Below are positions 53,212 through 63,947 of a stretch of 64,000 nucleotides of DNA, in pieces; the first letter of the stretch is position 1; every line of letters begins with the position of its first letter. The notes under the pieces are model-generated. The model was not told where the DNA came from, ran no database searches, and saw nothing but the letters and a program-made list of their open reading frames with translations. Both the position numbers and the translations under genes were made by a program. The stretch comes from Candidatus Undinarchaeota archaeon. GTDB lineage: Archaea; SpSt-1190; JASMDC01. Location: contig CAZFHY010000009.1 of the NCBI GenBank assembly GCA_964519305.1, forward strand, positions 32,001 to 96,000, in the 5' to 3' direction.

Positions 53212-54171
53212 ATGGCCGAAGAGGGCAAACTCCGGAAGCAGGAGATAACCGAGTGCCCCGAGTGCGGGAGCAGGGACCTCTACCGCGACGAGGACCGTGG
53301 CGAAGTCGTCTGCGCCGGTTGCGGGCTGGTCATCGAGGAGTCCATGGTGGACACCTCACAAGAATGGCGCGAGTTCGACCATGAGCAAGCCTCCAAGCGC
53401 CGACGTACTGGAGCTCCACTATCGGCCGCACGACACGACCGCGGGCTCACGACAGACATCGGTAAAGGCATCAGCGAGATCTACTCCGCTCTCCCAGCCG
53501 GCAAGCGTGCCCAGTACATGCGTCTGCGCAAGTGGCAGAGCCGCATGGTCAGCGCCACGGAGCGCAACCTCCGCTTCGCTTTATCGGAACTGAAGCGTTA
53601 CTCTTCCTATCTCAATCTCCCGACGAACATCGAGGAGACCACCGCTATCCTCTACCGTAAGGCCGTGAGCAAGGGTCTGGTGCGGGGAAGGTCCATGGAG
53701 AGCGTCATTGCTGGCGCCCTCTATGCCGCGTGCCGCCGCCATAACACTCCGCGCACTCTCGAAGAGATCGCTGAGGTCTCCAAGGTGAGCAAGCGTGACA
53801 TCGGCCGTGCCTACAGGTACCTGGCCAGGGAGCTGGGCCTGCGTATCCTTCCTACCAAACCCGAGGACTATATCCCCCGGTTCGCTTCCGAGCTGGGCCT
53901 CTCGGGCGAGGTGCAGGCGACCGCCATAGAGATCATCAAGCAGGCGGAGGCAAACGAGCTAATCTCGGGCAAGGGTCCCACGGGCATCGCCGCCGCCACC
54001 CTCTATCTGGCATCCCAGATCGTCGGGGAGCGACGCACCCAGCGTCAGGTCGCAGAGGTCGCAGGTGTCACCGAGGTAACGATCCGGAACCGGTGCAAGG
54101 ACCTTATCGAGCGCCTCACACTCGAGGTACCCTCCGGCCGCCGAGGTCGACGGCGACGGAAGCGCGAGTAG
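53212..54171 (+). CDS. tfb: Transcription initiation factor IIB
   Basis: Zn ribbon CPECG...C..CG, EWR.F, RTGAP, ERNL..AL, two cyclin repeats and VTEVTIRNR. Confidence 0.97.
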   Translation: MAEEGKLRKQEITECPECGSRDLYRDEDRGEVVCAGCGLVIEESMVDTSQEWREFDHEQASKRRRTGAPLSAARHDRGLTTDIGKGISEIYSALPAGKRAQYMRLRKWQSRMVSATERNLRFALSELKRYSSYLNLPTNIEETTAILYRKAVSKGLVRGRSMESVIAGALYAACRRHNTPRTLEEIAEVSKVSKRDIGRAYRYLARELGLRILPTKPEDYIPRFASELGLSGEVQATAIEIIKQAEANELISGKGPTGIAAATLYLASQIVGERRTQRQVAEVAGVTEVTIRNRCKDLIERLTLEVPSGRRGRRRRKRE

Positions 54172-54282: not shown

Positions 54283-54417
54283 CTACCCGAAGACGTTGTC
54301 CCTGTCGAGCTTTACCATGGCCTTGTTGATGCGCGACAGCTCATACCAGACATAGAACCCGATAACGAAATAGATCCACTGTGTGTACAGCAGAGCATCG
54401 GCCGTTGTGTCGATCAC
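54283..54417 (-). CDS. 44-aa single-TM micro-protein
   Basis: MIDTTADALLYTQWIYFVIGFYVWYELSRINKAMVKLDRDNVFG; its GTG overlaps the stop of the upstream peptide (GTGA coupling). Confidence 0.65.
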   Translation of the reverse strand: MIDTTADALLYTQWIYFVIGFYVWYELSRINKAMVKLDRDNVFG

Positions 54418-54557
54418 TCGTCACCGCCATCCTTTCCACTCTTCACTGCGAGCTCTTCGACCGCCTGGCGGAGCCGTCGCACCTCGTAGCATAGAAGGGC
54501 ACCGAAGATGGCCAGTGGCACCTGACTGATTATGACCGATTCCGGTGTCGTTAGCAT
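54414..54557 (-). CDS. 47-aa single-TM micro-protein
   Basis: MLTTPESVIISQVPLAIFGALLCYEVRRLRQAVEELAVKSGKDGGDE; GGAGTGA RBS-like sequence upstream. Confidence 0.65.
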   Translation of the reverse strand: MLTTPESVIISQVPLAIFGALLCYEVRRLRQAVEELAVKSGKDGGDE

Positions 54558-54581
54558 GTTCGTCACTCCGTTGGATTATCC

Positions 54582-55703
54582 TTATACGTCTTTTCCACCG
54601 CGGGCACCACCACCTAGACCCACGGCCTGTTTCGCCCGCAATCCCAGATAGCGGTAGATAGCTCCTGTCAGACGTCGCAGCTGCTTGTTCCAGAGGGATG
54701 CTGCCGAGAAGTACACCAGGCCCTCAACGAACATCGACGACAGCATGGAGAACCGCACTATATCACCAATGGCCCGGTTGGATGCACCGGCCTCATCGTA
54801 ACGCTGCCGGATGGTCTTGGCGGTCTGCTCCTCGACCGAGAGTTCGCGACGATGGTCCATACTCTCGAGCACGTCTTCTGGTGGTATCGGCTGCTCACGC
54901 ACACGCTCGATGAGCGCGTCGAGGTCCTCTCCCTTCTCCTCGAAGTAGGTACGGATGATCGACCGACCGTATTCGAGGTCCGACTCCAAGTGGCGCACGA
55001 CCTCCTCATGGATGAGATTGTCCGAGTAGGGATTGGAGAGGAACACGCCCACGACGTTGGCGAGCACACAGTAGGGCTGACGGTGTATGTGGTAGCCCTT
55101 GAGGCCTGGTGCACGGACCCGGTTCCCCATATCGATGCCCAGCTCGCCCAGGGCTGCGTCCTCCTTCCCTACTGTATAGAAATAGGATGGATGGATATGT
55201 CGGATTCCGAACTCACCGTAGAAGCGCTTGAGAGTATCGAGAACTCCGGGCATCTGCTCGGGATTATGCACCTCTTCCTGGATGGCCCCATCAGCCGCCA
55301 GCGGTATAGCGTTCTCGAGACAGTAGATGACCGTCCGCACGTGCATGATGAACTTGCAAGTGATGCAGGCGAAGTGGAGGCAGTCCCAGTGACGTACCTG
55401 GTTGTCCATCCACCAGGGAGGGATCGGCATGATCGAATGACGTACCTTTCCAGGGAAGGCCTTCTTCAGTGCATCGGACGACTTCTCCGAGAACTTCACG
55501 AAGATATCGACGTCCGTCTCGTAGGTGACGAGATGGACCTCGTCAAGGAGCCGGGAGAGAATGCCCGAGGCCAGTGACGAGTCGCCGCCACCCGAGAACA
55601 TCACCGCTGCCCGTAGAGGTGTGCCCTTCGTCACGTCCCCCGGGTCCGTGTCGGTTGATTTAAAGGTTTGCGCTCCGCCGCTGTCGGCGCGATCATCCTT
55701 CAT
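54582..55703 (-). CDS. PP-loop (adenine nucleotide alpha-hydrolase) protein with CxxC and QPxC, paralogue A
   Basis: FSGGGDS, VHLVT, CITCK..MH, PEQ and QPYC; C-terminal extension. Confidence 0.82.
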   Translation of the reverse strand: MKDDRADSGGAQTFKSTDTDPGDVTKGTPLRAAVMFSGGGDSSLASGILSRLLDEVHLVTYETDVDIFVKFSEKSSDALKKAFPGKVRHSIMPIPPWWMDNQVRHWDCLHFACITCKFIMHVRTVIYCLENAIPLAADGAIQEEVHNPEQMPGVLDTLKRFYGEFGIRHIHPSYFYTVGKEDAALGELGIDMGNRVRAPGLKGYHIHRQPYCVLANVVGVFLSNPYSDNLIHEEVVRHLESDLEYGRSIIRTYFEEKGEDLDALIERVREQPIPPEDVLESMDHRRELSVEEQTAKTIRQRYDEAGASNRAIGDIVRFSMLSSMFVEGLVYFSAASLWNKQLRRLTGAIYRYLGLRAKQAVGLGGGARGGKDV

Positions 55704-55715
55704 CTGCGAGCCACC

Positions 55716-56096
55716 TCACGCTATTGAGAGCTGTCCGATGGCCCCGAGAACGACAAGGACGAGCGCCAGCGTCATCACGACGCCCGATAGCGCGCACAGG
55801 GGAGCGAAGTTACGGTAAACGATACCGCCTACGCCGGGCGAGTGCCTGAGGAGGCGTCCTACGATCCGGCACCTCGCTCGCGGGCTCACGTCGGGTTCGG
55901 CAAGGAGTACGGGAGCTGTGTCGGCCAGATAGGATAGGTAGAATCGAGCAGGTGCCCTGTACCGCGGGAGCACGAGGGCCGTGAGAACTAGCACGGGAAC
56001 GAACACGATGTTGAACGCTGTCGTGACCGCGAGCGCCAAGAGGAAACCCACATACGAAACAGGTTCCCGTCCCTCGTTCCCACCACAGCAAACCAT
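55716..56096 (-). CDS. Small membrane protein starting MxCCG, paralogue A
   Basis: MVCCGG, TM helix, R.RCR..G.L....P.....Y..F, then TM helix. True start is ATG 56096. Confidence 0.78.
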   Translation of the reverse strand: MVCCGGNEGREPVSYVGFLLALAVTTAFNIVFVPVLVLTALVLPRYRAPARFYLSYLADTAPVLLAEPDVSPRARCRIVGRLLRHSPGVGGIVYRNFAPLCALSGVVMTLALVLVVLGAIGQLSIA

Positions 56097-56127
56097 TAAA
56101 GGTACTCTCCTGTATCGCTCAATAATA

Positions 56128-56165
56128 CTTAACGGGGTAAAATATATTAACTTAACGCCGTTAAG
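56128..56165. promoter_or_regulatory. Bidirectional TATA element flanked by two copies of a palindromic operator
   Basis: Perfect CTTAACG-C-CGTTAAG at 56151-65 and degenerate CTTAACG-G-GGTAAAA at 56128-42 on either side of TATATTAA. Confidence 0.7.
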
Positions 56166-56175
56166 GTAGTGTATT

Positions 56176-56520
56176 ATGAAACCACCATGCGAGATTGTGA
56201 CAATGCACATTCTCCCCGCTGTCCGGTCATCCTTGTCGCGTATGCTGGTCGAGAAGCACGGGATGACGCGCGCTGCCGTCGCCAAGCGACTGGGCGTCAC
56301 CCAAGCGGCCGTGACCCAGTACTTCAAGGCGGTGAGGGGCACCCGGAACAAGGAGGTCATCGACGAGAACTTCAGTGACCTCATCGATGATATCGCCACC
56401 CGCATCGCGCGGGGTGAGGACGAGCTCGAGGGCATCTGTGGTCTCTGCAAGACCATCAGGAACGATGAGCGGTTCAAGCGGTACATCGAGCGGGGCAAGT
56501 GCGACGTCTGTACGGGATAG
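56176..56520 (+). CDS. Cys-rich HTH transcriptional regulator (COG2522-like)
   Basis: PCE...LP..R, HTH (VAKRLGVTQAAVTQY...RG), C..C and a C-terminal C..C. Confidence 0.88.
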   Translation: MKPPCEIVTMHILPAVRSSLSRMLVEKHGMTRAAVAKRLGVTQAAVTQYFKAVRGTRNKEVIDENFSDLIDDIATRIARGEDELEGICGLCKTIRNDERFKRYIERGKCDVCTG

Positions 56521-56523
56521 GTC

Positions 56524-57276
56524 ATGCCAAAGCGTGAAAAAGAGCGAGAGGAACCACCTGACGATCGCGGGGACGATGTTGCCGTCCTGTTCTCAGGGGG
56601 AGTCGACTCGACAACGGTCGCCGTGCTGGCCGCCGAGCGGTTCAAGCGGGTTCATCTCCTCACCTTCAACACAGGCTTCCTCTACAACATGGACCTATCG
56701 GGCAAGCACGTGGTCACCCTCAAAGAGCTCTTCGGTGATGATGCCATACGTCACGAGCTCATCGACATCCGTCGCGTCTGGCGCGCCGTCCAGCGCACGA
56801 ACATCACCTCGGACCTGCTGCGCTACCGATCATGGTTCATCCTGTGCATGGGATGCAAGCTGACCATGCACGCTGCCACCATCCGCTACTGTCGTGAGCA
56901 CGGGATACACCATGCCTATGGCGGCGAGAACGTATGCCAGGACCAGTATCCCGAGCAGAAGCAGGCCATTCTCGACGAACTCCAAGGTCTGTATAAAGAG
57001 TACGACATCACCTATGAGTCGCCGGTGTACAACTTCACGAATATTGAGGAGGACACCAAGCTCCAGTCCCTCGGGTTCCGGCTCGGACATCACCTCAAGC
57101 TCTTCCCTAATACCAAGGGTTCCTATCACGGCACCCAGCCTTTCTGTCTCTCCTTCCCGATCTATCCTTTCGCGAACATGTTCCCACCAAAGGACACGCC
57201 CGTAGTCGAGTATCTCCAAGAGCACCTTCCACGGGCACGTGCGTTCATCGAGGACGAGCATAGGGAGGATGACTGA
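56524..57276 (+). CDS. PP-loop protein with CxxC and QPxC, paralogue B
   Basis: FSGGVDS, VHLLT, CMGCK..MH, PEQ and QPFC. Confidence 0.85.
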   Translation: MPKREKEREEPPDDRGDDVAVLFSGGVDSTTVAVLAAERFKRVHLLTFNTGFLYNMDLSGKHVVTLKELFGDDAIRHELIDIRRVWRAVQRTNITSDLLRYRSWFILCMGCKLTMHAATIRYCREHGIHHAYGGENVCQDQYPEQKQAILDELQGLYKEYDITYESPVYNFTNIEEDTKLQSLGFRLGHHLKLFPNTKGSYHGTQPFCLSFPIYPFANMFPPKDTPVVEYLQEHLPRARAFIEDEHREDD

Positions 57277-57597
57277 ATGCCGTGCTGTGGCGTGTCCCCG
57301 GACACTAACACTCCGTTCATGCGGCTCTTCGTCTTCGTGCTCGGCCTATTCCTCAGCTTCCTAGCGCTCGTGAGGCCCGGGTATAGTAAGCTGGCGAGGA
57401 ACGCCTATGCTTACGTCTTCAAGGGCACGGACATGGAGCGGCGGGTGAAATGCAAGCTCACCGGCCAGCTCATGCCCCGATACCCGCGCCTGGCAAGCTA
57501 TCTCTACAAGACCTTCGAAGTGAACTTCCTGCGTGTGTCGGTCGTCGGGATGATCGCTCTCGTCTTCCTGGTCCGCCAGGCAATAGTGACGTTCTAG
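57277..57597 (+). CDS. Small membrane protein starting MxCCG, paralogue B
   Basis: MPCCG, TM helix, R.KCK..G.L....P.....Y..F, then TM helix. Confidence 0.78.
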   Translation: MPCCGVSPDTNTPFMRLFVFVLGLFLSFLALVRPGYSKLARNAYAYVFKGTDMERRVKCKLTGQLMPRYPRLASYLYKTFEVNFLRVSVVGMIALVFLVRQAIVTF

Positions 57598-57601
57598 CGG
57601 C

Positions 57602-58636
57602 TCATGCCCCTATGTAGCGGGCATAGAGCGAGCGTGCCACGCTCGGATCATCGGTCCCTCGTACTAGCGCACGACCATCCTTGAAGACGACAAGCTCGTT
57701 CTCGGCCAGCGAGAGTGTGAGCGTGTGCTCTGTCAGCTGCACCTCGCCAAGGCCCCGGAGACGCTCCGATAGCTCCGGAAGGGAGAGTTCTCCTGATTTG
57801 GCCGGTGTCACCTGCACCATCTCTCGACCGCACATGATAGTGGTCAGACCGGTCCGTCCACCCTCAAGGAACTCGTAACGCCCCTCTCCACAGCATCCGC
57901 ATCGCGGGTCCCGTGCGACCTCCACTCGCCGCAGCTCGCGCCGCCAGGCATCGTAGACGACAAGGTCCCTGTCAATGTCCTCCCGGCCCAGGATGAGCTT
58001 GAGGGCTTCAGAGGTCTCCAGTGCCCCGATCACAAGGGGGAGGGTGTTGAGCACGCCGACGCGATCGCACGTATCCAGCGATCCGGGCGGGGGCAGGGAG
58101 GGAAGACAGCACCGGAGGCATGGCGTATCCCCAGGTACTATCGTCAGGCTCATCCCCAAGGTGGACACGGCACCACCGTACACCCACGGCACACCATGTT
58201 TCACGCATGCGTCGTTGAGTAGGAACCTGCTCTCGAGGTTGTCGGTGCCATCTATGACGACGTCCATTCCGTCAAGGAGGTCCTCAACGGTCTTAGGGCC
58301 CACGTCCTTGACAACACCTTCCACGACCACATCATGGTTGATGGCCTGGAGGCGCTCGACCGCAGCGATTGCCTTGGGCGAACCTACGTCGCCCTCGTCG
58401 AACAGCACCTGACGCTGTAGGTTGCTCAGTTCCACAAGGTCCCGGTCGACCAGCCTCACATGTCCCACGCCCGCCCGGACGAGAGCGGATGCCACGACCG
58501 TGCCCAGGGCCCCGACACCGATGACCAGTGCCGACCCACCAGCGAGCCGTTCCTGTCCCTCGGTACCGACCTCGGGAAGGATTACCTGCCTTCCATACCT
58601 GTCGTCGGAGGGTCTGGGACCATCGGTAGTCGCCAT
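57602..58636 (-). CDS. ThiF/MoeB E1-like adenylyltransferase with an extra C-terminal domain
   Basis: RY.RQ, G.GALG, DRD.VELSNLQRQ, DN..SR, C..C, active-site TC and C..C. Confidence 0.92.
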   Translation of the reverse strand: MATTDGPRPSDDRYGRQVILPEVGTEGQERLAGGSALVIGVGALGTVVASALVRAGVGHVRLVDRDLVELSNLQRQVLFDEGDVGSPKAIAAVERLQAINHDVVVEGVVKDVGPKTVEDLLDGMDVVIDGTDNLESRFLLNDACVKHGVPWVYGGAVSTLGMSLTIVPGDTPCLRCCLPSLPPPGSLDTCDRVGVLNTLPLVIGALETSEALKLILGREDIDRDLVVYDAWRRELRRVEVARDPRCGCCGEGRYEFLEGGRTGLTTIMCGREMVQVTPAKSGELSLPELSERLRGLGEVQLTEHTLTLSLAENELVVFKDGRALVRGTDDPSVARSLYARYIGA

Positions 58637-58740
58637 GATGGTGATATGATGGAGGAACAGGGATAAAAACATGGCCTTTTGGGCCTTTCCACGCCCAGGC
58701 CCAAGCGAAAAGTCCTAAAACCTTCCCCTCCTGCGACGGG

Positions 58741-59925
58741 GTGATGGCGCTACCGGGTACCGTGCTCGTGCGATATGGTGAGCTCGCACTGAAGAAGGGC
58801 ACGATCCGCACAGGTTTCGAGCGGGAGCTCGTCCGTAATATCCAGCGCCTCCTTGAGCACAAGGGCATTCAAGGAAAGGTCACCCGGGACCGCGGACGCG
58901 TGTTCATCGCTACCGACGAGCCACGTGCTGCTGCCGAGGCGACCGCACGCGTGTTCGGTGTCACATCGTGTTCCGTCGTCGAGACCTGTGGCGTAGAGAT
59001 GGATGTCATCGTAAACGCCGTCGCGTCCTTCGCAGCAGAGCACCTCCCCTCTGACACATCGTTCGCCGTCCGGGCCCGCCGCGCAGGCACCCACTCGTTC
59101 ACCAGCATCGATGTCGGTAAGGCCGTCGGCCAGGGTATACGCGACGAACGGCCTGACCTCACCGTCGACCTGGATGCACCTGTGAGCGAGGTGTTCGTCG
59201 AAGTGCGACAGAAAGAAGCGTACTACTTCCTCGACCGTGTGGAGGGCACCGGCGGCCTCCCCCTCGCCACCCAGGGCAGGACCGCAGTGCTCATCTCGGG
59301 TGGTATCGACTCGCCCGTTGCCGCATGGCTCATGATGAAGCGCGGTTGTGTCCCCATCTTCATCCACTTCGTGCTCGATCCCTTCTCCGACATGGCCAAC
59401 CGCGACCGCGCAGTGGACATGTGCCACCGGCTCAAGTGCTGGGCCATCGGCCGCAAGGTCAAGCTATACCTCGTCCCGCACGGTGAGAACCTAGCCGAGA
59501 TCGCGCGATCGTGCCCGCACCACCTCCAGTGCGTCCTGTGTCGCAGGATGATGTACCGTATCGCCGACGTCATCGCAGAACGCGAGCGTGCTCTCTCGCT
59601 CACCACAGGGGAGAGCCTCGGACAGGTGGCATCACAGACCGCTGAGAACCTCTTCGTCGAGGACAGGGTGTCCACACGACCTGTGTTCCGCCCGCTCATC
59701 GGCCTGGACAAGCTCGAGATCACGCGTATCGGTGAGCGCATCGGTACGTTCGAGGTTTCGGTCAAACCGGCCGGGTGCTGCACGATAACCCCTGACCGCC
59801 CCGAGAAGCGGGGGAAGCTCCCTATCGTCGAGGAGGCGGAGCAGGCGCTGGACATCGACGCCCTTGTGAAGGCTGCCCTGGAGGGCGCCAAGATCGTCGA
59901 GGTGGAGGCGAAAGGATGCGAGTGA
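58741..59925 (+). CDS. thiI: tRNA 4-thiouridine synthase ThiI (rhodanese-less, CxxC+C type)
   Basis: VRYGE..LK, THUMP domain, SGGIDSPVA, CVLCRR, GESLGQVASQT, RPLIG.DK and CC. Confidence 0.95.
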   Translation: MMALPGTVLVRYGELALKKGTIRTGFERELVRNIQRLLEHKGIQGKVTRDRGRVFIATDEPRAAAEATARVFGVTSCSVVETCGVEMDVIVNAVASFAAEHLPSDTSFAVRARRAGTHSFTSIDVGKAVGQGIRDERPDLTVDLDAPVSEVFVEVRQKEAYYFLDRVEGTGGLPLATQGRTAVLISGGIDSPVAAWLMMKRGCVPIFIHFVLDPFSDMANRDRAVDMCHRLKCWAIGRKVKLYLVPHGENLAEIARSCPHHLQCVLCRRMMYRIADVIAERERALSLTTGESLGQVASQTAENLFVEDRVSTRPVFRPLIGLDKLEITRIGERIGTFEVSVKPAGCCTITPDRPEKRGKLPIVEEAEQALDIDALVKAALEGAKIVEVEAKGCE

Positions 59926-60192: not shown

Positions 60193-61500
60193 CTATAACA
60201 GACCTGGCAGCCCGGTCACCAGCATCACGACACCGATGAACAGGAAGAAGATGGTGGCGGCGATCTTGGTCCCTGCCACATGCTTCTTGAACAGGTCCTG
60301 CATGCTCTTTGACGTGGTCTCAAGGTAGGCGGCAACGAACACGATGACGAGCGGGGAGATGAACAGCAAGTTGTACAGGATCAGGTAGAACATGGCCTGT
60401 GAGCGCAGTTCGGGCACTCCGAGGATATACACGATGGTCGGGAGATAGACCTGCCCCGTGCAGAGGAACTCGAAGAACGTGATGCCGAAGCCAACAAAGA
60501 AGGCGAAGGCCGCAAGGTACTCGGAGCGCGCTGCCGTCCGGACGATCGTATGGGTGGCCTTCTTGGCCCACTTGGGCATCTGAAGCGTCATCTCGTTCGG
60601 GTCACCGTCCCGGGCCCGGCAATAGTCGCGATAAGACAGGGCAGCGAACACGAGCGCTATGAATCCGGTGGCGGGATAGATAAGGGCCGACACAAGTGAG
60701 AAGCGCTCGACATAGACGAGCATACGCCTGAACCAGAGCCCCAGGAGAAGGTTGGCAGAGAAGACGCCAGCCGAGTAGAGGATTCCAATGAAGAGCACCT
60801 CCTTACCCTTCCGCTGGATGTAGGCAAGATAGGATATGAAGAAGATGAGACCGGCGATAGCACAGGGATTGATGCTGTCGACAAGACCGGCTATGATCAC
60901 AGCGGACGCAGAGAAGCTCGTGAAACGGTCGATGATTGAGTTACGTCCGGCCTCGACGCCTCCCGTATGGAAGACTTCGCACGAGCACGGGATCCCCTCT
61001 TCCGGTGCGGTGGATATGCTCTTCTCGAGCCCAGCGCGGACCTCCTCCTCACCTATGAAGTGGGTCTGGCCGACATAGAGGGCCGGGACGAAGGCACGTT
61101 TTTCCGGTGGGACGCCGAACTGTGCGTCCATCGCCTCTTTGATCTCGGCGTTCTCAGGGAATAGGATGTTCATCTTATGGACATAGAGCCGAGGATGTCG
61201 GACCGCGAGCTCATCGAGGTAGGTCGACACTCGTGCGCAAGAGCCACAGGTCGGAGAGTAGAAGTAGGCAACGCAAATGCCATTCGGTGGGCAGTCCATA
61301 GGCTCGTCGGCCACCAGCTCCTGTACAGTGGGAGTGGTGTCGGTCCCGCATGATTCGGCTACGATGGAGCATGCCTCGCCCTCAGCAGGCTCGGAAGTGC
61401 TCGTGCCAATATCTGAGGATGAGGCGATTGCCTCAAGACCCTGAGCGGCAGCTGCCGCGGGGACTAATATGAGAAGGAGCGCGATGATGAGCGCTCGCAC
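60193..61500 (-). CDS. Thioredoxin-domain / CcdA (DsbD-like) membrane protein
   Basis: Signal peptide, YFYSPTCGSC with VP, GLVDSINPCA, EFLCTGQVY and six TM helices. Start approximate. Confidence 0.88.
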   Translation of the reverse strand: MRALIIALLLILVPAAAAAQGLEAIASSSDIGTSTSEPAEGEACSIVAESCGTDTTPTVQELVADEPMDCPPNGICVAYFYSPTCGSCARVSTYLDELAVRHPRLYVHKMNILFPENAEIKEAMDAQFGVPPEKRAFVPALYVGQTHFIGEEEVRAGLEKSISTAPEEGIPCSCEVFHTGGVEAGRNSIIDRFTSFSASAVIIAGLVDSINPCAIAGLIFFISYLAYIQRKGKEVLFIGILYSAGVFSANLLLGLWFRRMLVYVERFSLVSALIYPATGFIALVFAALSYRDYCRARDGDPNEMTLQMPKWAKKATHTIVRTAARSEYLAAFAFFVGFGITFFEFLCTGQVYLPTIVYILGVPELRSQAMFYLILYNLLFISPLVIVFVAAYLETTSKSMQDLFKKHVAGTKIAATIFFLFIGVVMLVTGLPGLL

Positions 61501-61507
61501 GACAGCG

Positions 61508-62044
61508 TCAGCAGCCCGCAATGCCCTCACCGATCCCGCACACGATCCTGCGAAGCTCGTCGTAGGCAGTGAACCCGACCTTGACACGATCGCAGGCGAA
61601 CACCAGAGTGGGTGTCGCCCGTATACTGTAGCCTCGGCTCATCCTCATGGCCTCGTCGAACGCTGTCTGTCCCACCTCGTCGACACACTTAGCACCGTCG
61701 TCATCCTTGAAGGCGATGCATTGCTTGTTGAGGTCGAATCCGTCACCGAGCTCCTCCTTCAGGCGCTCGAGGCCCGGTTTCGTCTTCACGCAAGCACCAC
61801 ACGATGGCGCATAGAAGTAGTCCAGGCGTATCTTTCCCGGCTCAAGGCACTCGTCGATCCGGTCGAGGACCCGGAGCCCGAATCCATCCACAACGGGAGC
61901 ACTGCCGCCACCAGGGCCCATAAGGAACACACCTCCGACGACGACCGTCATGAACAGGCCGACCAGGAGGAGAGTGCGCGCGACAGGGATTTCGATATCC
62001 GTGTCCTTTCCCTTGTTCCGTTTCTTATGGGTCACTCTCCCCAT
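61508..62044 (-). CDS. Membrane-anchored thioredoxin-like protein
   Basis: TM helix, YFYAPSCGAC and ATPTLV. Confidence 0.85.
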   Translation of the reverse strand: MGRVTHKKRNKGKDTDIEIPVARTLLLVGLFMTVVVGGVFLMGPGGGSAPVVDGFGLRVLDRIDECLEPGKIRLDYFYAPSCGACVKTKPGLERLKEELGDGFDLNKQCIAFKDDDGAKCVDEVGQTAFDEAMRMSRGYSIRATPTLVFACDRVKVGFTAYDELRRIVCGIGEGIAGC

Positions 62045-62069
62045 GGTCGTTGCCTCCAGTACGACTACT

Positions 62070-63947
62070 CTATGCAGCCTTGGCCAGCTCTTTATCGATG
62101 ATGTCCTTGAAGACCGCGAACGGCTGGGCACCGCTGATCGAGAATCCGTTCACGAAGAACGCCGGGGTTCCGGACACGCCGTACTCCTGACCATCATCCA
62201 GGTCCTTCTGGACCTCGTTGGCGTACTTGCCGCTGTCAAGGCACGTCTTGAACGCATCCATGTCGAGGCCGATGTCCTTGGCGAACTGCTCGAGCCCTGC
62301 TGCGTTTATGCCTGCTTGGTTCTCATAGAGGGCGTCATGGTACTCCCAGAACTTGCCCTGCTCCTCCGCACAGTGACTGGCCTCTGAGGCCTTCCGGGCG
62401 AAGGGGTGGAGCTGGTCGAGCGGGAAGTCGCGGTAGACGAAGCGCACCTTGTCACCGTACTCCTCGAGTATCTGCTTGATCGTGGGCTCGGCGCGCGAGC
62501 AGAAGGGGCACTGGTAATCTGAGAACTCGATGATGGTCACCGGTGCGTCCTCAGGACCCAGGGCCGGATCGTCGTCCACGCCCGGCGGCTGCAGGTACTT
62601 GCCGGCACCGACCGCACCGGGGCTGACTAGATATTGATCGCCCTTCTGGATCAGCACTTGGGCGACCTTATCGTAGTTACCCGCCTGTAGCACGCTCGAA
62701 TCGAATATGTACGCAGGTACTGCCTTGATATCCAGGTCCTCTATCATCTTCTTCCCCTCTGCAGAGGAGATATCTACATTGGTGACCTGGACCGTGGGGA
62801 ACAGTTGCGTGCGGAAGATACCGATGAGCTCGGAAGGATCACAGGCATCACAGGCCTCGTCGTTCAGGACCGTGAGCTTCACGACCGGATCGTTGTCGCT
62901 GGGCCGCTCGCCGGTGAGTATCAACTCGATGACCTCCTCGAAGGCCGGGTAGGGCTGTGCTCCGGAGATTGTCTCCTCCATGAGTCGTCCGTTCGCGTCC
63001 GTCCCCTGGATAATGAAGCCCGGCGTACCGGTGATGCCCTTGGCCTGACCTTCGGCCATGTCGTCCTTGACCTTCTGTGCCTTCTCATCCGAGTCCAGAC
63101 AGTTATCGAAGGTCGCTGTGTCGAGGCCCAGGTTCTTAGCGTACCCCTTGAGTGAGGGGACAGTTAGAGCGTTCTGGTTTTCGAAGAGCATGTCATGGTA
63201 CTCCCAGAACTTGCCCTGGTCACGAGCACATTCCGATGCTTCTGCGGCCTTCTGAGCGTTCTCGTGGAAGCCCAGCGGGAAGTGCTTGAAGATTATATTG
63301 ACCTTATCCCCGTAGGTGGCCTTGATCTGTTCCATAATAGGAACGGCCCTCGAACAGAACGGGCACTGGAAGTCGCTGTACTCCAGGATCGTGATCTCTG
63401 CATCCGTCGCCCCTCCGCTTGGGCGTTGAGTGGCTGTAGGGGCCTTCGTCGGGGCCGCCGTGGGCGCTGCTGTCGGTTTAGCTGTCACCTTCGGGGTGCT
63501 ATCCGTACCGGTCTCCTTCTGGATGATCGTGTCGACCGCTGCTCCTTGGACGCCCATGAGCTCTAGACTGGCCTTGACGTCCGCTGCCGCAACACCACGT
63601 GCGAGCTGGTACTGCACGAAGGCCTCGACGTTCTTTGCAGGGATCCCTGCAGAGGTTTGAGTTGTGCCGGTGGCACCGATCCGTATGCTGCCCATGGACA
63701 GTCCCACCGCAGCGATCACCATCACGGCGGCCAGCACCATCGCAGCGACCATCCAGGCGTTCGTTCCGTTCTCTGCGTTATCCAAGCGCTCCTCGACCTC
63801 ATCGAGTTCATCCGCTAGTTCTGTGAACCGACGGTTCATCTCGACGATACCGTCGTCCACTTCATCGAGACGCTCTTTGACGAGCTTGAGGGATACTCCT
63901 GATGTTCTCGCTTTCACCGGCCTTGCAGCCTTCTTCTTCTCTACCAT
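62070..63947 (-). CDS. Multi-domain DsbA-family oxidoreductase (two DsbA domains and a central Trx-like domain)
   Basis: Two SD(F/Y)QCPFC...FPL...GTP.F domains, central CDAC/VP, and an N-terminal coiled coil, TM helix and PT-rich linker. Confidence 0.9.
   Translation of the reverse strand: MVEKKKAARPVKARTSGVSLKLVKERLDEVDDGIVEMNRRFTELADELDEVEERLDNAENGTNAWMVAAMVLAAVMVIAAVGLSMGSIRIGATGTTQTSAGIPAKNVEAFVQYQLARGVAAADVKASLELMGVQGAAVDTIIQKETGTDSTPKVTAKPTAAPTAAPTKAPTATQRPSGGATDAEITILEYSDFQCPFCSRAVPIMEQIKATYGDKVNIIFKHFPLGFHENAQKAAEASECARDQGKFWEYHDMLFENQNALTVPSLKGYAKNLGLDTATFDNCLDSDEKAQKVKDDMAEGQAKGITGTPGFIIQGTDANGRLMEETISGAQPYPAFEEVIELILTGERPSDNDPVVKLTVLNDEACDACDPSELIGIFRTQLFPTVQVTNVDISSAEGKKMIEDLDIKAVPAYIFDSSVLQAGNYDKVAQVLIQKGDQYLVSPGAVGAGKYLQPPGVDDDPALGPEDAPVTIIEFSDYQCPFCSRAEPTIKQILEEYGDKVRFVYRDFPLDQLHPFARKASEASHCAEEQGKFWEYHDALYENQAGINAAGLEQFAKDIGLDMDAFKTCLDSGKYANEVQKDLDDGQEYGVSGTPAFFVNGFSISGAQPFAVFKDIIDKELAKAA

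Follow-up and report, generated by a model that had tools for sequence, protein, structure and literature searches.

What purpose is served by two PP-loop ATPases that are encoded back to back in an archaeon, each accompanied by a small membrane protein with a Cys-Cys pair at its N-terminal tip? This question is raised by positions 54283–57597 of the 64,000-nucleotide stretch analysed here (the window), which belongs to the genome (3.63 Mb in 42 contigs) of an uncultured marine archaeon. Two divergent transcription units lie there between a TFB gene and a ThiF-type gene: (i) the left arm (minus strand), encoding in this order an MVCCGG membrane protein, PP-loop ATPase A and two small open reading frames (ORFs), and (ii) the right arm (plus strand), encoding a helix-turn-helix (HTH) regulator, PP-loop ATPase B and an MPCCG membrane protein. 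The locus is an archaeal, duplicated and divergent version of an undescribed PP-loop/Cys-Cys-membrane-protein sulfur-insertion cassette; no published description of such a PP-loop/M-x-C-C cassette was found in the literature searched. Based on homology, conserved residues and gene context, it is interpreted here, with a probability of about one half, as two paralogous membrane-tethered, ATP-dependent and probably iron-sulfur (Fe-S)-dependent modules for oxygen-to-sulfur exchange under control of their own repressor. The features of the cassette are:

54283..54417, minus strand: small ORF of 44 aa, last gene of the left arm, conserved with the sister species
54414..54566, minus strand: small one-helix membrane ORF, 50 aa as listed, one hydrophobic segment (Kyte-Doolittle)
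54582..55703, minus strand: PP-loop ATPase A, 373 aa (SGGGDS, CITCKFIMH, PEQ, QPYC)
55716..56096, minus strand: M-V-C-C-G-G two-helix membrane protein, 126 aa, first gene of the left arm
56097..56175: divergent control region, 79 bp (palindrome, degenerate copy, two A/T-rich boxes)
56176..56520, plus strand: Xre-type HTH regulator, 114 aa (Pfam HTH_3)
56524..57276, plus strand: PP-loop ATPase B, 250 aa (SGGVDS, CMGCKLTMH, PEQ, QPFC)
57277..57597, plus strand: M-P-C-C-G two-helix membrane protein, 106 aa, its first base directly following the stop codon of PP-loop B

An earlier note, made from this DNA alone, had described one PP-loop protein and one small membrane protein per arm, and an HTH protein with five cysteines as first gene of the right arm; all motifs quoted in it are present where it placed them. 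The divergent duplication it had proposed is borne out by pairwise comparison for both protein pairs: PP-loop A and B have 30 % identity across 231 residues (E 2e-26), the MVCCGG and MPCCG proteins 31 % (E 3e-7). Codon comparison with the sister species indicates purifying selection on every cassette gene.

Relationship of the PP-loop enzymes to YcfA

Pfam and NCBIfam matches cover only the first ~60 residues of the enzymes, i.e., the PP-loop (QueC, Asn synthase and DUF7411, ~40–65 residues each), and no NCBIfam model reaches its cut-off with A or B. Compared with solved structures, PP-loop B finds YcfA of Erwinia amylovora far ahead of other matches (phmmer E 1.1e-22), and the profile of the enzyme family recognizes YcfA at E 2.5e-35. 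A Foldseek search with an AlphaFold2 model of B (pLDDT 92.6) likewise returned the YcfA chains on top, matching over the full length with TM-scores of 0.85–0.88 (target-normalised); runners-up were QueC, MJ0690, TtuA, NcsA, ThiI and LarE (E ~1e-6 to 1e-5, TM-score at most 0.6). The nearest characterised protein is thereby YcfA, at 28 % identity. The names attached to the nearest PP-loop clusters are uninformative (“hypothetical protein” and one COG-style label of a tRNA methyltransferase subunit).

Identity with QueC, ThiI, TtuA, LarE or DndC was ruled out by profile coverage and fold scores. QueC shares the N-terminal PP-loop and provides the best Pfam match of B (33 bits), but this match spans only profile positions 3–63 of 210, TIGR00364 reaches 34 of the 150 bits required, the TM-score is 0.55–0.60 and the C-terminal zinc-binding Cys cluster of QueC is missing. 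The earlier note had placed the enzymes outside QueC and the other characterised families, pointing to this missing cluster and to the lack of THUMP and zinc-finger RNA-binding domains; the profile and structure searches agree with the former, since they led to a triad-less protein at 28 % identity, the QueC match stops before the cluster, and the Pfam scan found neither type of domain.

According to the published account (PMC12494993), YcfA adenylates the lactam carbonyl of guanine, free L-cysteine then attacks, and the pyridoxal-phosphate (PLP) lyase YcfC cleaves the adduct to yield the thioamide. Arg18 is described there as anchoring L-cysteine and GTP, with Arg18 and Tyr128 holding L-cysteine, and YcfC as being without a persulfide-forming (catalytic) cysteine. 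The window enzymes resemble the YcfA-YcfC system (PDB 9KQ6/9KQ7/9KQ9/9KQD; PMC12494993) in the SGGxDS PP-loop and the full-length fold, and some of their relatives are paired or fused with a class-V PLP enzyme. They differ from it in four respects: (i) the L-cysteine site Arg18/Tyr128 is replaced by Val/Cys in B and by Gly/Glu in A, (ii) they carry a CxxC...C triad that YcfA lacks, (iii) the partner desulfurases of bacterial relatives retain the persulfide cysteine missing from YcfC, and (iv) YcfA has no membrane partner, while the window cassette has no neighbouring PLP enzyme.

Beyond the L-cysteine site, five YcfA positions have the same residue in PP-loop B, namely D19, Q129, Q135, K169 and the general base E134; Tyr takes the place of F132. 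PP-loop A retains D19, E134 and Q135 only, i.e., not R18, Y128, Q129, F132 and K169. The predicted substrate pockets of A and B differ; therefore, the two enzymes probably act on two substrates or catalyze two steps. PP-loop A further consists of a YcfA-like core and a lineage-specific C-terminal extension of ~120 aa without relatives outside the genus among the loci collected. A transmembrane anchor within this extension was considered, and hydropathy revealed no clear segment.

The enzyme family is small. A profile search of 1.84 billion cluster representatives yielded 825 clusters at E≤1e-3, 492 at E≤1e-10 and 166 at E≤1e-30. Among 41 related archaeal genomes, three contain a member, namely the genome of the window, that of the sister species and one with a distant match.

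A cysteine triad as hallmark of the family

In an alignment of the best 150 family clusters together with A and B (152 rows), the PP-loop is present in nearly all rows, followed ~80 residues further by a CxxC motif and ~100 residues beyond by a third cysteine. In the numbering of B, C108 is found in 140 rows, C111 in 144 and C208 in 136; a further cysteine, C123, occurs in 100 of the 152. This extends to the whole family what the earlier note had taken for an Fe-S insertase-type signature. At the CxxC positions YcfA has a gap or Leu, and Glu; therefore, it represents either a Cys-less offshoot of the triad family or its sister.

The ligand pattern and spacing are those of the three-Cys [4Fe-4S] site of TtuA, TtcA, NcsA and CtaC, with which the window enzymes would presumably share their chemistry, namely adenylation and then sulfur insertion. 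The distance between the PP-loop Asp and CxxC is 80 residues in the window enzyme and 77 in CtaC. In the latter, the corresponding residues are D77/S78 and C154/C157/C284, and mutation of the cysteines or removal of the Fe-S cluster diminishes or abolishes thioamidation (PMC6772006). Unlike the TtuA/TtcA-type proteins, the window enzymes have no zinc-finger or tRNA-binding parts, and these proteins are only distant fold matches (Foldseek E ~1e-5, TM-score 0.38–0.42). The Pfam model ATP_bind_3 is matched neither by A or B (E≤0.1) nor by 81 family members (E≤0.001). Judged by ligand pattern and spacing, the triad probably binds a [4Fe-4S] cluster.

Membrane partners with a Cys-Cys tip

The M-x-C-C membrane proteins match no Pfam or NCBIfam family. 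That their N-termini are genuine is apparent from the right-arm gene: codons 1–14 show five synonymous and no non-synonymous changes relative to the sister species, and the internal Met chosen as start by the gene caller is Thr there; therefore, the Cys-Cys tail is translated and constrained. The left-arm MVCCGG gene shows 30 synonymous and 15 non-synonymous changes in the same comparison. An N-terminal Cys-Cys occurs in all 12 aligned members (M-x-C-C in 10, MQSTGCCG in 2), residue 2 of the M-x-C-C tail being Ala, Pro, Val or Gly, and a loop cysteine within R-C-x-L-S-G-x-L...Y-R-x-F is present in 11 of the 12 rows. Each partner has two hydrophobic segments connected by a loop with a net charge of +9 (right arm) or +6 (left arm), the tails being approximately neutral.

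Small Cys-bearing partners beside SufS-type desulfurases, such as the persulfide acceptors SufE, CsdE, SufU and TusA, are presumably the nearest functional analogues, and the vicinal Cys pair near a transmembrane helix presumably finds a parallel in the mercury transporters MerT and MerF. From both groups the M-x-C-C proteins differ in lacking any sequence or family match to them, in their linkage to PP-loop enzymes, and in being membrane-embedded with the Cys-Cys at the N-terminal tip.

Relatives are rare. A word-indexed search of 5.8 billion proteins gave three matches, and eight clusters when a profile was used, distributed over the archaeal genus and one Myxococcales lineage; one of these eight (P0162) looks like a chimeric contig. 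A protein-atlas look-up of the left-arm protein returned only unnamed clusters, with recognition below a useful level. Among the loci collected at that stage, a regular-expression scan for M-x-CCG ORFs matched only loci of the own genus and L028, and found none in the other PP-loop family loci L023–L027 and L096–L109. Within 17 genomes of the archaeal phylum, convincing partner matches were confined to the genus of the window. Weak matches of the membrane profile in three small genomes of this phylum (G008, G011, G013) and in L190, G425:C70 and G059:C43 were rejected, being partial, located inside larger ORFs and unconvincing.

Recurrence of the pairing and its sulfur-donor context

Whether the pairing recurs beyond the genus was decided by a scan of 401 genomes of the phylum of L028 (Myxococcota) with the partner profile, which matched 7 genomes; six loci (L185–L190) were fetched, and the first five of them together with L028 make up six credible partner loci. 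A PP-loop gene adjoins the partner in four of them (L028, L187, L188, L189), a class-V aminotransferase gene (Aminotran_5) likewise in four (L028, L185, L186, L189), and one or both in all six. In L028, a metagenome-assembled genome of the Myxococcales, the MACCGG protein follows the aminotransferase and is divergent from the PP-loop gene. The partner directly follows the PP-loop gene in L187 and L188, the former also having a carbamoyltransferase nearby. L189 comprises two PP-loop genes, two partners and one aminotransferase in a row, and L185 an aminotransferase flanked by two divergent partners on a contig of only 3.7 kb. The catalytic His-Cys of SufS-type desulfurases is retained in 6/6 aligned partner aminotransferases. 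This would favour a persulfide route rather than a YcfC-style lyase route, because the desulfurases retain the catalytic cysteine that YcfC lacks. Conservation of the PP-loop/M-x-C-C pairing elsewhere, on which the novelty claimed by the earlier note depended, is thus found in Myxococcota, together with SufS-type desulfurases.

The enzyme family at large was surveyed in Pfam-annotated neighbourhoods from genomes and metagenomes (the latter scanned with a 7-row alignment); a number of metagenome loci repeat loci from the genomes (the ORFs of L025 are those of L102), and the contexts are therefore examples rather than frequencies. The PP-loop protein is fused to Aminotran_5 in L024 and L097 and stands next to one in L028. 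In L026 and L099 it clusters with CysK, CysE and NifS (± HcyBio, NIL-ferredoxin) behind an Rrf2 regulator. SepCysS-like PLP enzymes stand beside PP-loop genes in L014 and at a copy on contig C1 of the own genome, and L096 places a family member beside ThiI, as in the window. Other contexts include carbamoyltransferase, glycosyltransferases, B12-radical-SAM and GDSL proteins (L007, L023, L024, L097), a Mo-hydroxylase (L102) and an AMP-binding enzyme (L100). Carbamoyltransferases were observed near family members in L007, L024, L097 and L187, which hints at chemistry of the carbamoyl or thiocarbamoyl type on envelope molecules.

Paralogues and phylogeny

The genome contains five PP-loop paralogues: the pair of the window, a divergent pair on contig C1 and a single copy on contig C4. 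A family tree built by a quick method from 64 rows, rooted at the midpoint and with SH-aLRT values as its only support, unites window A and B in one clade (support 89), with the C1 copy as nearest paralogue of B (support 98); A and B are judged to be no recent tandem duplicate.

The second divergent YcfA-like pair (G000:C1:268582-271326; L006 4582-7326) is arranged tail-to-tail with a SepCysS/SepSecS-like PLP enzyme, and adjacency of a PLP enzyme and a PP-loop gene was seen again in another archaeal genome (L014). The fifth paralogue (G000:C4; L007 1523-6846) follows a NodU/CmcH-type carbamoyltransferase and two LPG_synthase_TM membrane proteins.

Control region and regulator

The 79 bp between the two arms had been supposed by the earlier note to hold one shared TATA element flanked by two operators. 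Neither supposition stands as worded. The sole perfect palindrome is CTTAACG-C-CGTTAAG at 56151–56165; the upstream copy at 56128–56141 contains two mismatches, and the sister species does not preserve the left half of this copy. There are A/T-rich boxes at ~56119–56127 and ~56141–56150, probably representing two promoters, i.e., one for the left arm and one for the right arm, respectively. Despite variable flanks, the sister species has an identical core TTAACGCCGTTAA, and the exact core is found only once in the 3.63-Mb genome. At up to two mismatches the window contains three palindrome matches versus 0.45 expected by chance, and genome-wide there are four one-mismatch sites besides the exact one (control, two). 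The position of the palindrome between the A/T-rich box and the ATG at 56176 would fit a repressor site at a leaderless or short-leader promoter.

The regulator matches HTH_3 with residues 23–54 (25.7 bits, cut-off 23) and has cysteines at positions 5, 88, 91, 109 and 112, the last four forming a C-terminal CxxC-x17-CxxC. An HTH paralogue of 133 aa (31 % identity, E 3e-17, same Cys pattern) is encoded outside the window, ~13 kb beyond the cassette (G000:C9:102336-105600; L201 6336-9600). Its operon contains a NifS-like desulfurase, a SufS-like desulfurase and a MOSC protein and is divergent from CysK-CysE; the intervening spacer includes a tRNA-like stretch. This operon looks like a sulfur-mobilisation regulon under a regulator of the same family. 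The cassette palindrome has no match at up to two mismatches upstream of the operon, and therefore there is no evidence for a common regulon.

HTH relatives occur in 33 of 61 archaeal genomes searched. Inspection of 18 neighbourhoods (L203–L220) revealed ThiI (L203, L204, L215, L218), a LarE-like PP-loop enzyme (L203, L204), a TtcA-type PP-loop protein (L217), a class-V aminotransferase (L212), CysRS (L206) and thioredoxin-like proteins (L211, L216), the neighbours in the remaining loci being unrelated or unassigned. From these neighbours, the HTH+Cys4 family looks like a regulator of sulfur trafficking. In bacteria, sulfur trafficking is controlled by Rrf2/IscR-type regulators, of which the HTH+CxxC...CxxC family may be the archaeal counterpart.

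Proposed function and alternative readings

In the reading favoured here, each PP-loop enzyme would consume ATP in adenylating an oxygen of its substrate, either of a carbonyl or of a lactam, as suggested by the YcfA-type general base together with fold and PP-loop motif. Sulfur bound to a [4Fe-4S] cluster, to which the CxxC...C triad points, would then take the place of the adenylated oxygen in the manner of TtuA and CtaC, and the free-cysteine adduct route of YcfA would not be used. Since the two genes are conserved as a pair, the M-x-C-C protein would anchor its enzyme to the membrane and hand over persulfide sulfur by means of its invariant cysteines. This sulfur would be supplied in bacteria by the neighbouring SufS-type desulfurase, and in the archaeon by the two desulfurases 13 kb away or by a ThiF-activated carrier. 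The Cys4 HTH protein would bind the unique palindrome, which lies between the promoter box of the right arm and the start codon, and its repression of the divergent pair would respond to a signal of thiol, metal or Fe-S type. Sulfur transfer driven by ATP at the membrane and governed by a Cys-rich regulator, as already envisaged in the earlier note, is the best-supported reading of the locus, because the triad is family-wide and HTH relatives stand beside sulfur enzymes; the recurrent pairing adds to this.

Several observations weigh against it. With respect to the enzymes, the “PEQ” with the general base common to YcfA occurs in only 34 of the 150 family representatives, and the triad could be a zinc site instead. 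With respect to the partner, the other three PP-loop paralogues of the genome have none, and the partner-bearing enzymes are scattered over several separate clades rather than forming one; therefore, the partnership is either old or has been repeatedly exchanged. L186 combines partner, aminotransferase and a GDSL protein with no PP-loop gene in the 12 kb retrieved. The right-arm partner is modelled by AlphaFold2 as all-helical at low confidence (pLDDT 58.5), with residues 1–12 disordered. By the positive-inside rule, the loop of each partner is predicted to be cytoplasmic and the Cys-Cys tip to face outward, away from the ATP-using enzyme; therefore, a relay would have to use the loop cysteine, or the topology differs from the prediction. 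Finally, the window cassette contains no SufS-type desulfurase, the nearest Aminotran_5 genes being those ~13 kb away on the same contig.

It is possible, if unlikely, that the M-x-C-C protein is a substrate or covalent carrier rather than a relay. Either its cysteine thiol would attack the adenylated substrate, tethering the intermediate to the membrane, or the tail itself would be modified by thioamidation or heterocycle formation. Such a role would agree with the invariance of the Cys-Cys tip (12/12) and the strong purifying selection on the tail, as well as with the presence of one enzyme per membrane protein in each arm, suggesting one-to-one matching. According to the published accounts, YcfA chemistry runs via a Cys S-adduct (PMC12494993) and CtaC works on carrier-tethered substrates (PMC6772006). 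However, the tail cysteines, lying behind residue 2, are not N-terminal, and therefore a PLP lyase could not process the tail like free cysteine. In addition, the partner desulfurases retain their persulfide-forming cysteine, the Fe-S-type triad points to sulfide or persulfide delivery, and the predicted topology may place the tail outside the cell.

A more far-reaching version of the relay, tentative and rather unlikely, would make the M-x-C-C proteins a new class of membrane sulfur conduit. The outward Cys pair and the cytoplasmic loop cysteine would pass sulfane sulfur across or along the membrane in the manner of MerT/MerF. If so, a desulfurase and an Fe-S thiolase would be coupled to an envelope lipid or glycan precursor, the two arms would serve different substrates or steps, and archaea as well as bacteria would make thio-carbonyl (thioamide- or thiocarbamate-type) envelope components. 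To our knowledge, no thio-carbonyl modification is known in natural glycans or lipids.

It is improbable that A and B are adenylating enzymes forming amides or nitriles, like QueC, ArtA and Asn synthetase, with the triad as structural zinc site. The weak N-terminal QueC and Asn synthase matches, the presence of QueC and the nitrile synthetase ArtA among the fold matches (E ~1e-6) and the recurrent carbamoyltransferase genes would be accounted for. Against this stand the far closer YcfA fold (TM-score 0.85–0.88 versus 0.33–0.60), the repeated fusion or adjacency to cysteine desulfurases and cysteine-synthesis genes, and the truncated, cluster-less likeness to QueC.

Housekeeping thiolases of tRNA or nucleotides, functionally akin to ThiI and NcsA and with the small membrane genes as unrelated neighbours, are decidedly improbable. 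ThiI and the ThiF-type E1 directly adjoin the cassette and are syntenic in the sister species, the family member of L096 is also beside ThiI, and PP-loop B retains the residues that hold the guanine base in YcfA; but neither THUMP, zinc-finger nor other RNA-binding domains are present, the distribution (3/41 related archaeal genomes) is too patchy, the M-x-C-C pairing recurs across domains, and the stop codon of B abuts the start codon of the membrane gene. Very improbable is a role of the M-x-C-C protein in handling a thiophilic metal or soft ligand across the membrane, with the PP-loop enzymes serving another purpose, since the parallel to the vicinal-Cys transporters MerT and MerF (small two-helix protein, vicinal Cys pair, conserved loop cysteine) and the extracytoplasmic thiol-disulfide proteins nearby, which we take to speak for it, are set against the lack of metal-resistance genes in the cassette, the lack of a Pfam match for the protein and its linkage to desulfurases and PP-loop enzymes rather than to reductases or metallochaperones.

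Small ORFs, neighbouring genes and host genome

For the two small ORFs closing the left arm, the loci collected contain relatives only within the genus. Relative to the sister species, the 44-aa ORF shows 13 synonymous and 4 non-synonymous codon changes, the 50-aa ORF 13 and 8, respectively. In the latter, codons 1–3 differ and the remainder is conserved; its true start is likely the ATG at codon 4, placing the gene end at ~54557. The cassette is surrounded by the following genes:

53212–54171: TFB gene, left border of the cassette region (the ThiF-type gene being the other border)
57602..58672, minus strand: ThiF/MoeB/UbaA-type E1 adenylyltransferase (Pfam ThiF 3.5e-71)
58741..59925, plus strand: ThiI with THUMP and PP-loop (TIGR00342, 310 bits, cut-off 264.5)
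60193–63947: extracytoplasmic thiol-redox run, i.e., a 464-aa polytopic membrane protein, a membrane-anchored thioredoxin and a 625-aa double-DsbA protein

The ThiF-type protein also matches PRK12475 (9e-94) and the SAMP-activating E1 model (1e-62) of NCBIfam, both below their cut-offs, and is a possible activator of a sulfur carrier. ThiF/MoeB, ThiI, thioredoxin and double DsbA are present downstream as listed in the earlier note; its CcdA label is not confirmed, since the 464-aa protein has an N-terminal thioredoxin-like part and only weak matches to thioredoxin/glutaredoxin and the ArsG family. From TFB through the thioredoxin gene, synteny extends to the single sister species (L022, L095, G001), where the redox run accompanies the cassette as far as the contig extends. 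These thiol-redox genes could matter if the Cys-Cys tips face outward.

The genome (3.6 Mb) and that of the sister species (3.8 Mb) are considerably larger than the other 15 of the phylum (0.6–1.2 Mb), so that either a lineage of reduced genomes has an exceptionally large member here or the classification is doubtful.

Significance

The known enzymes that put sulfur in place of a carbonyl oxygen act on tRNA, on a small number of cofactors and in the making of a few antibiotics (6-thioguanine, closthioamide). The present family would add a separate branch of this enzyme class that combines the YcfA fold with an iron-sulfur-type Cys triad and is tied to a dedicated Cys-Cys membrane protein, in bacteria also to its own cysteine desulfurase. 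With two enzyme-partner pairs, differing pockets, a small regulator and a genome-unique operator, the archaeal locus would be a compact test bed for this chemistry. It further suggests a widespread archaeal HTH+Cys4 family regulating sulfur trafficking, and the cassette as a whole points to a so far unrecognised sulfur-containing product made at the membrane.

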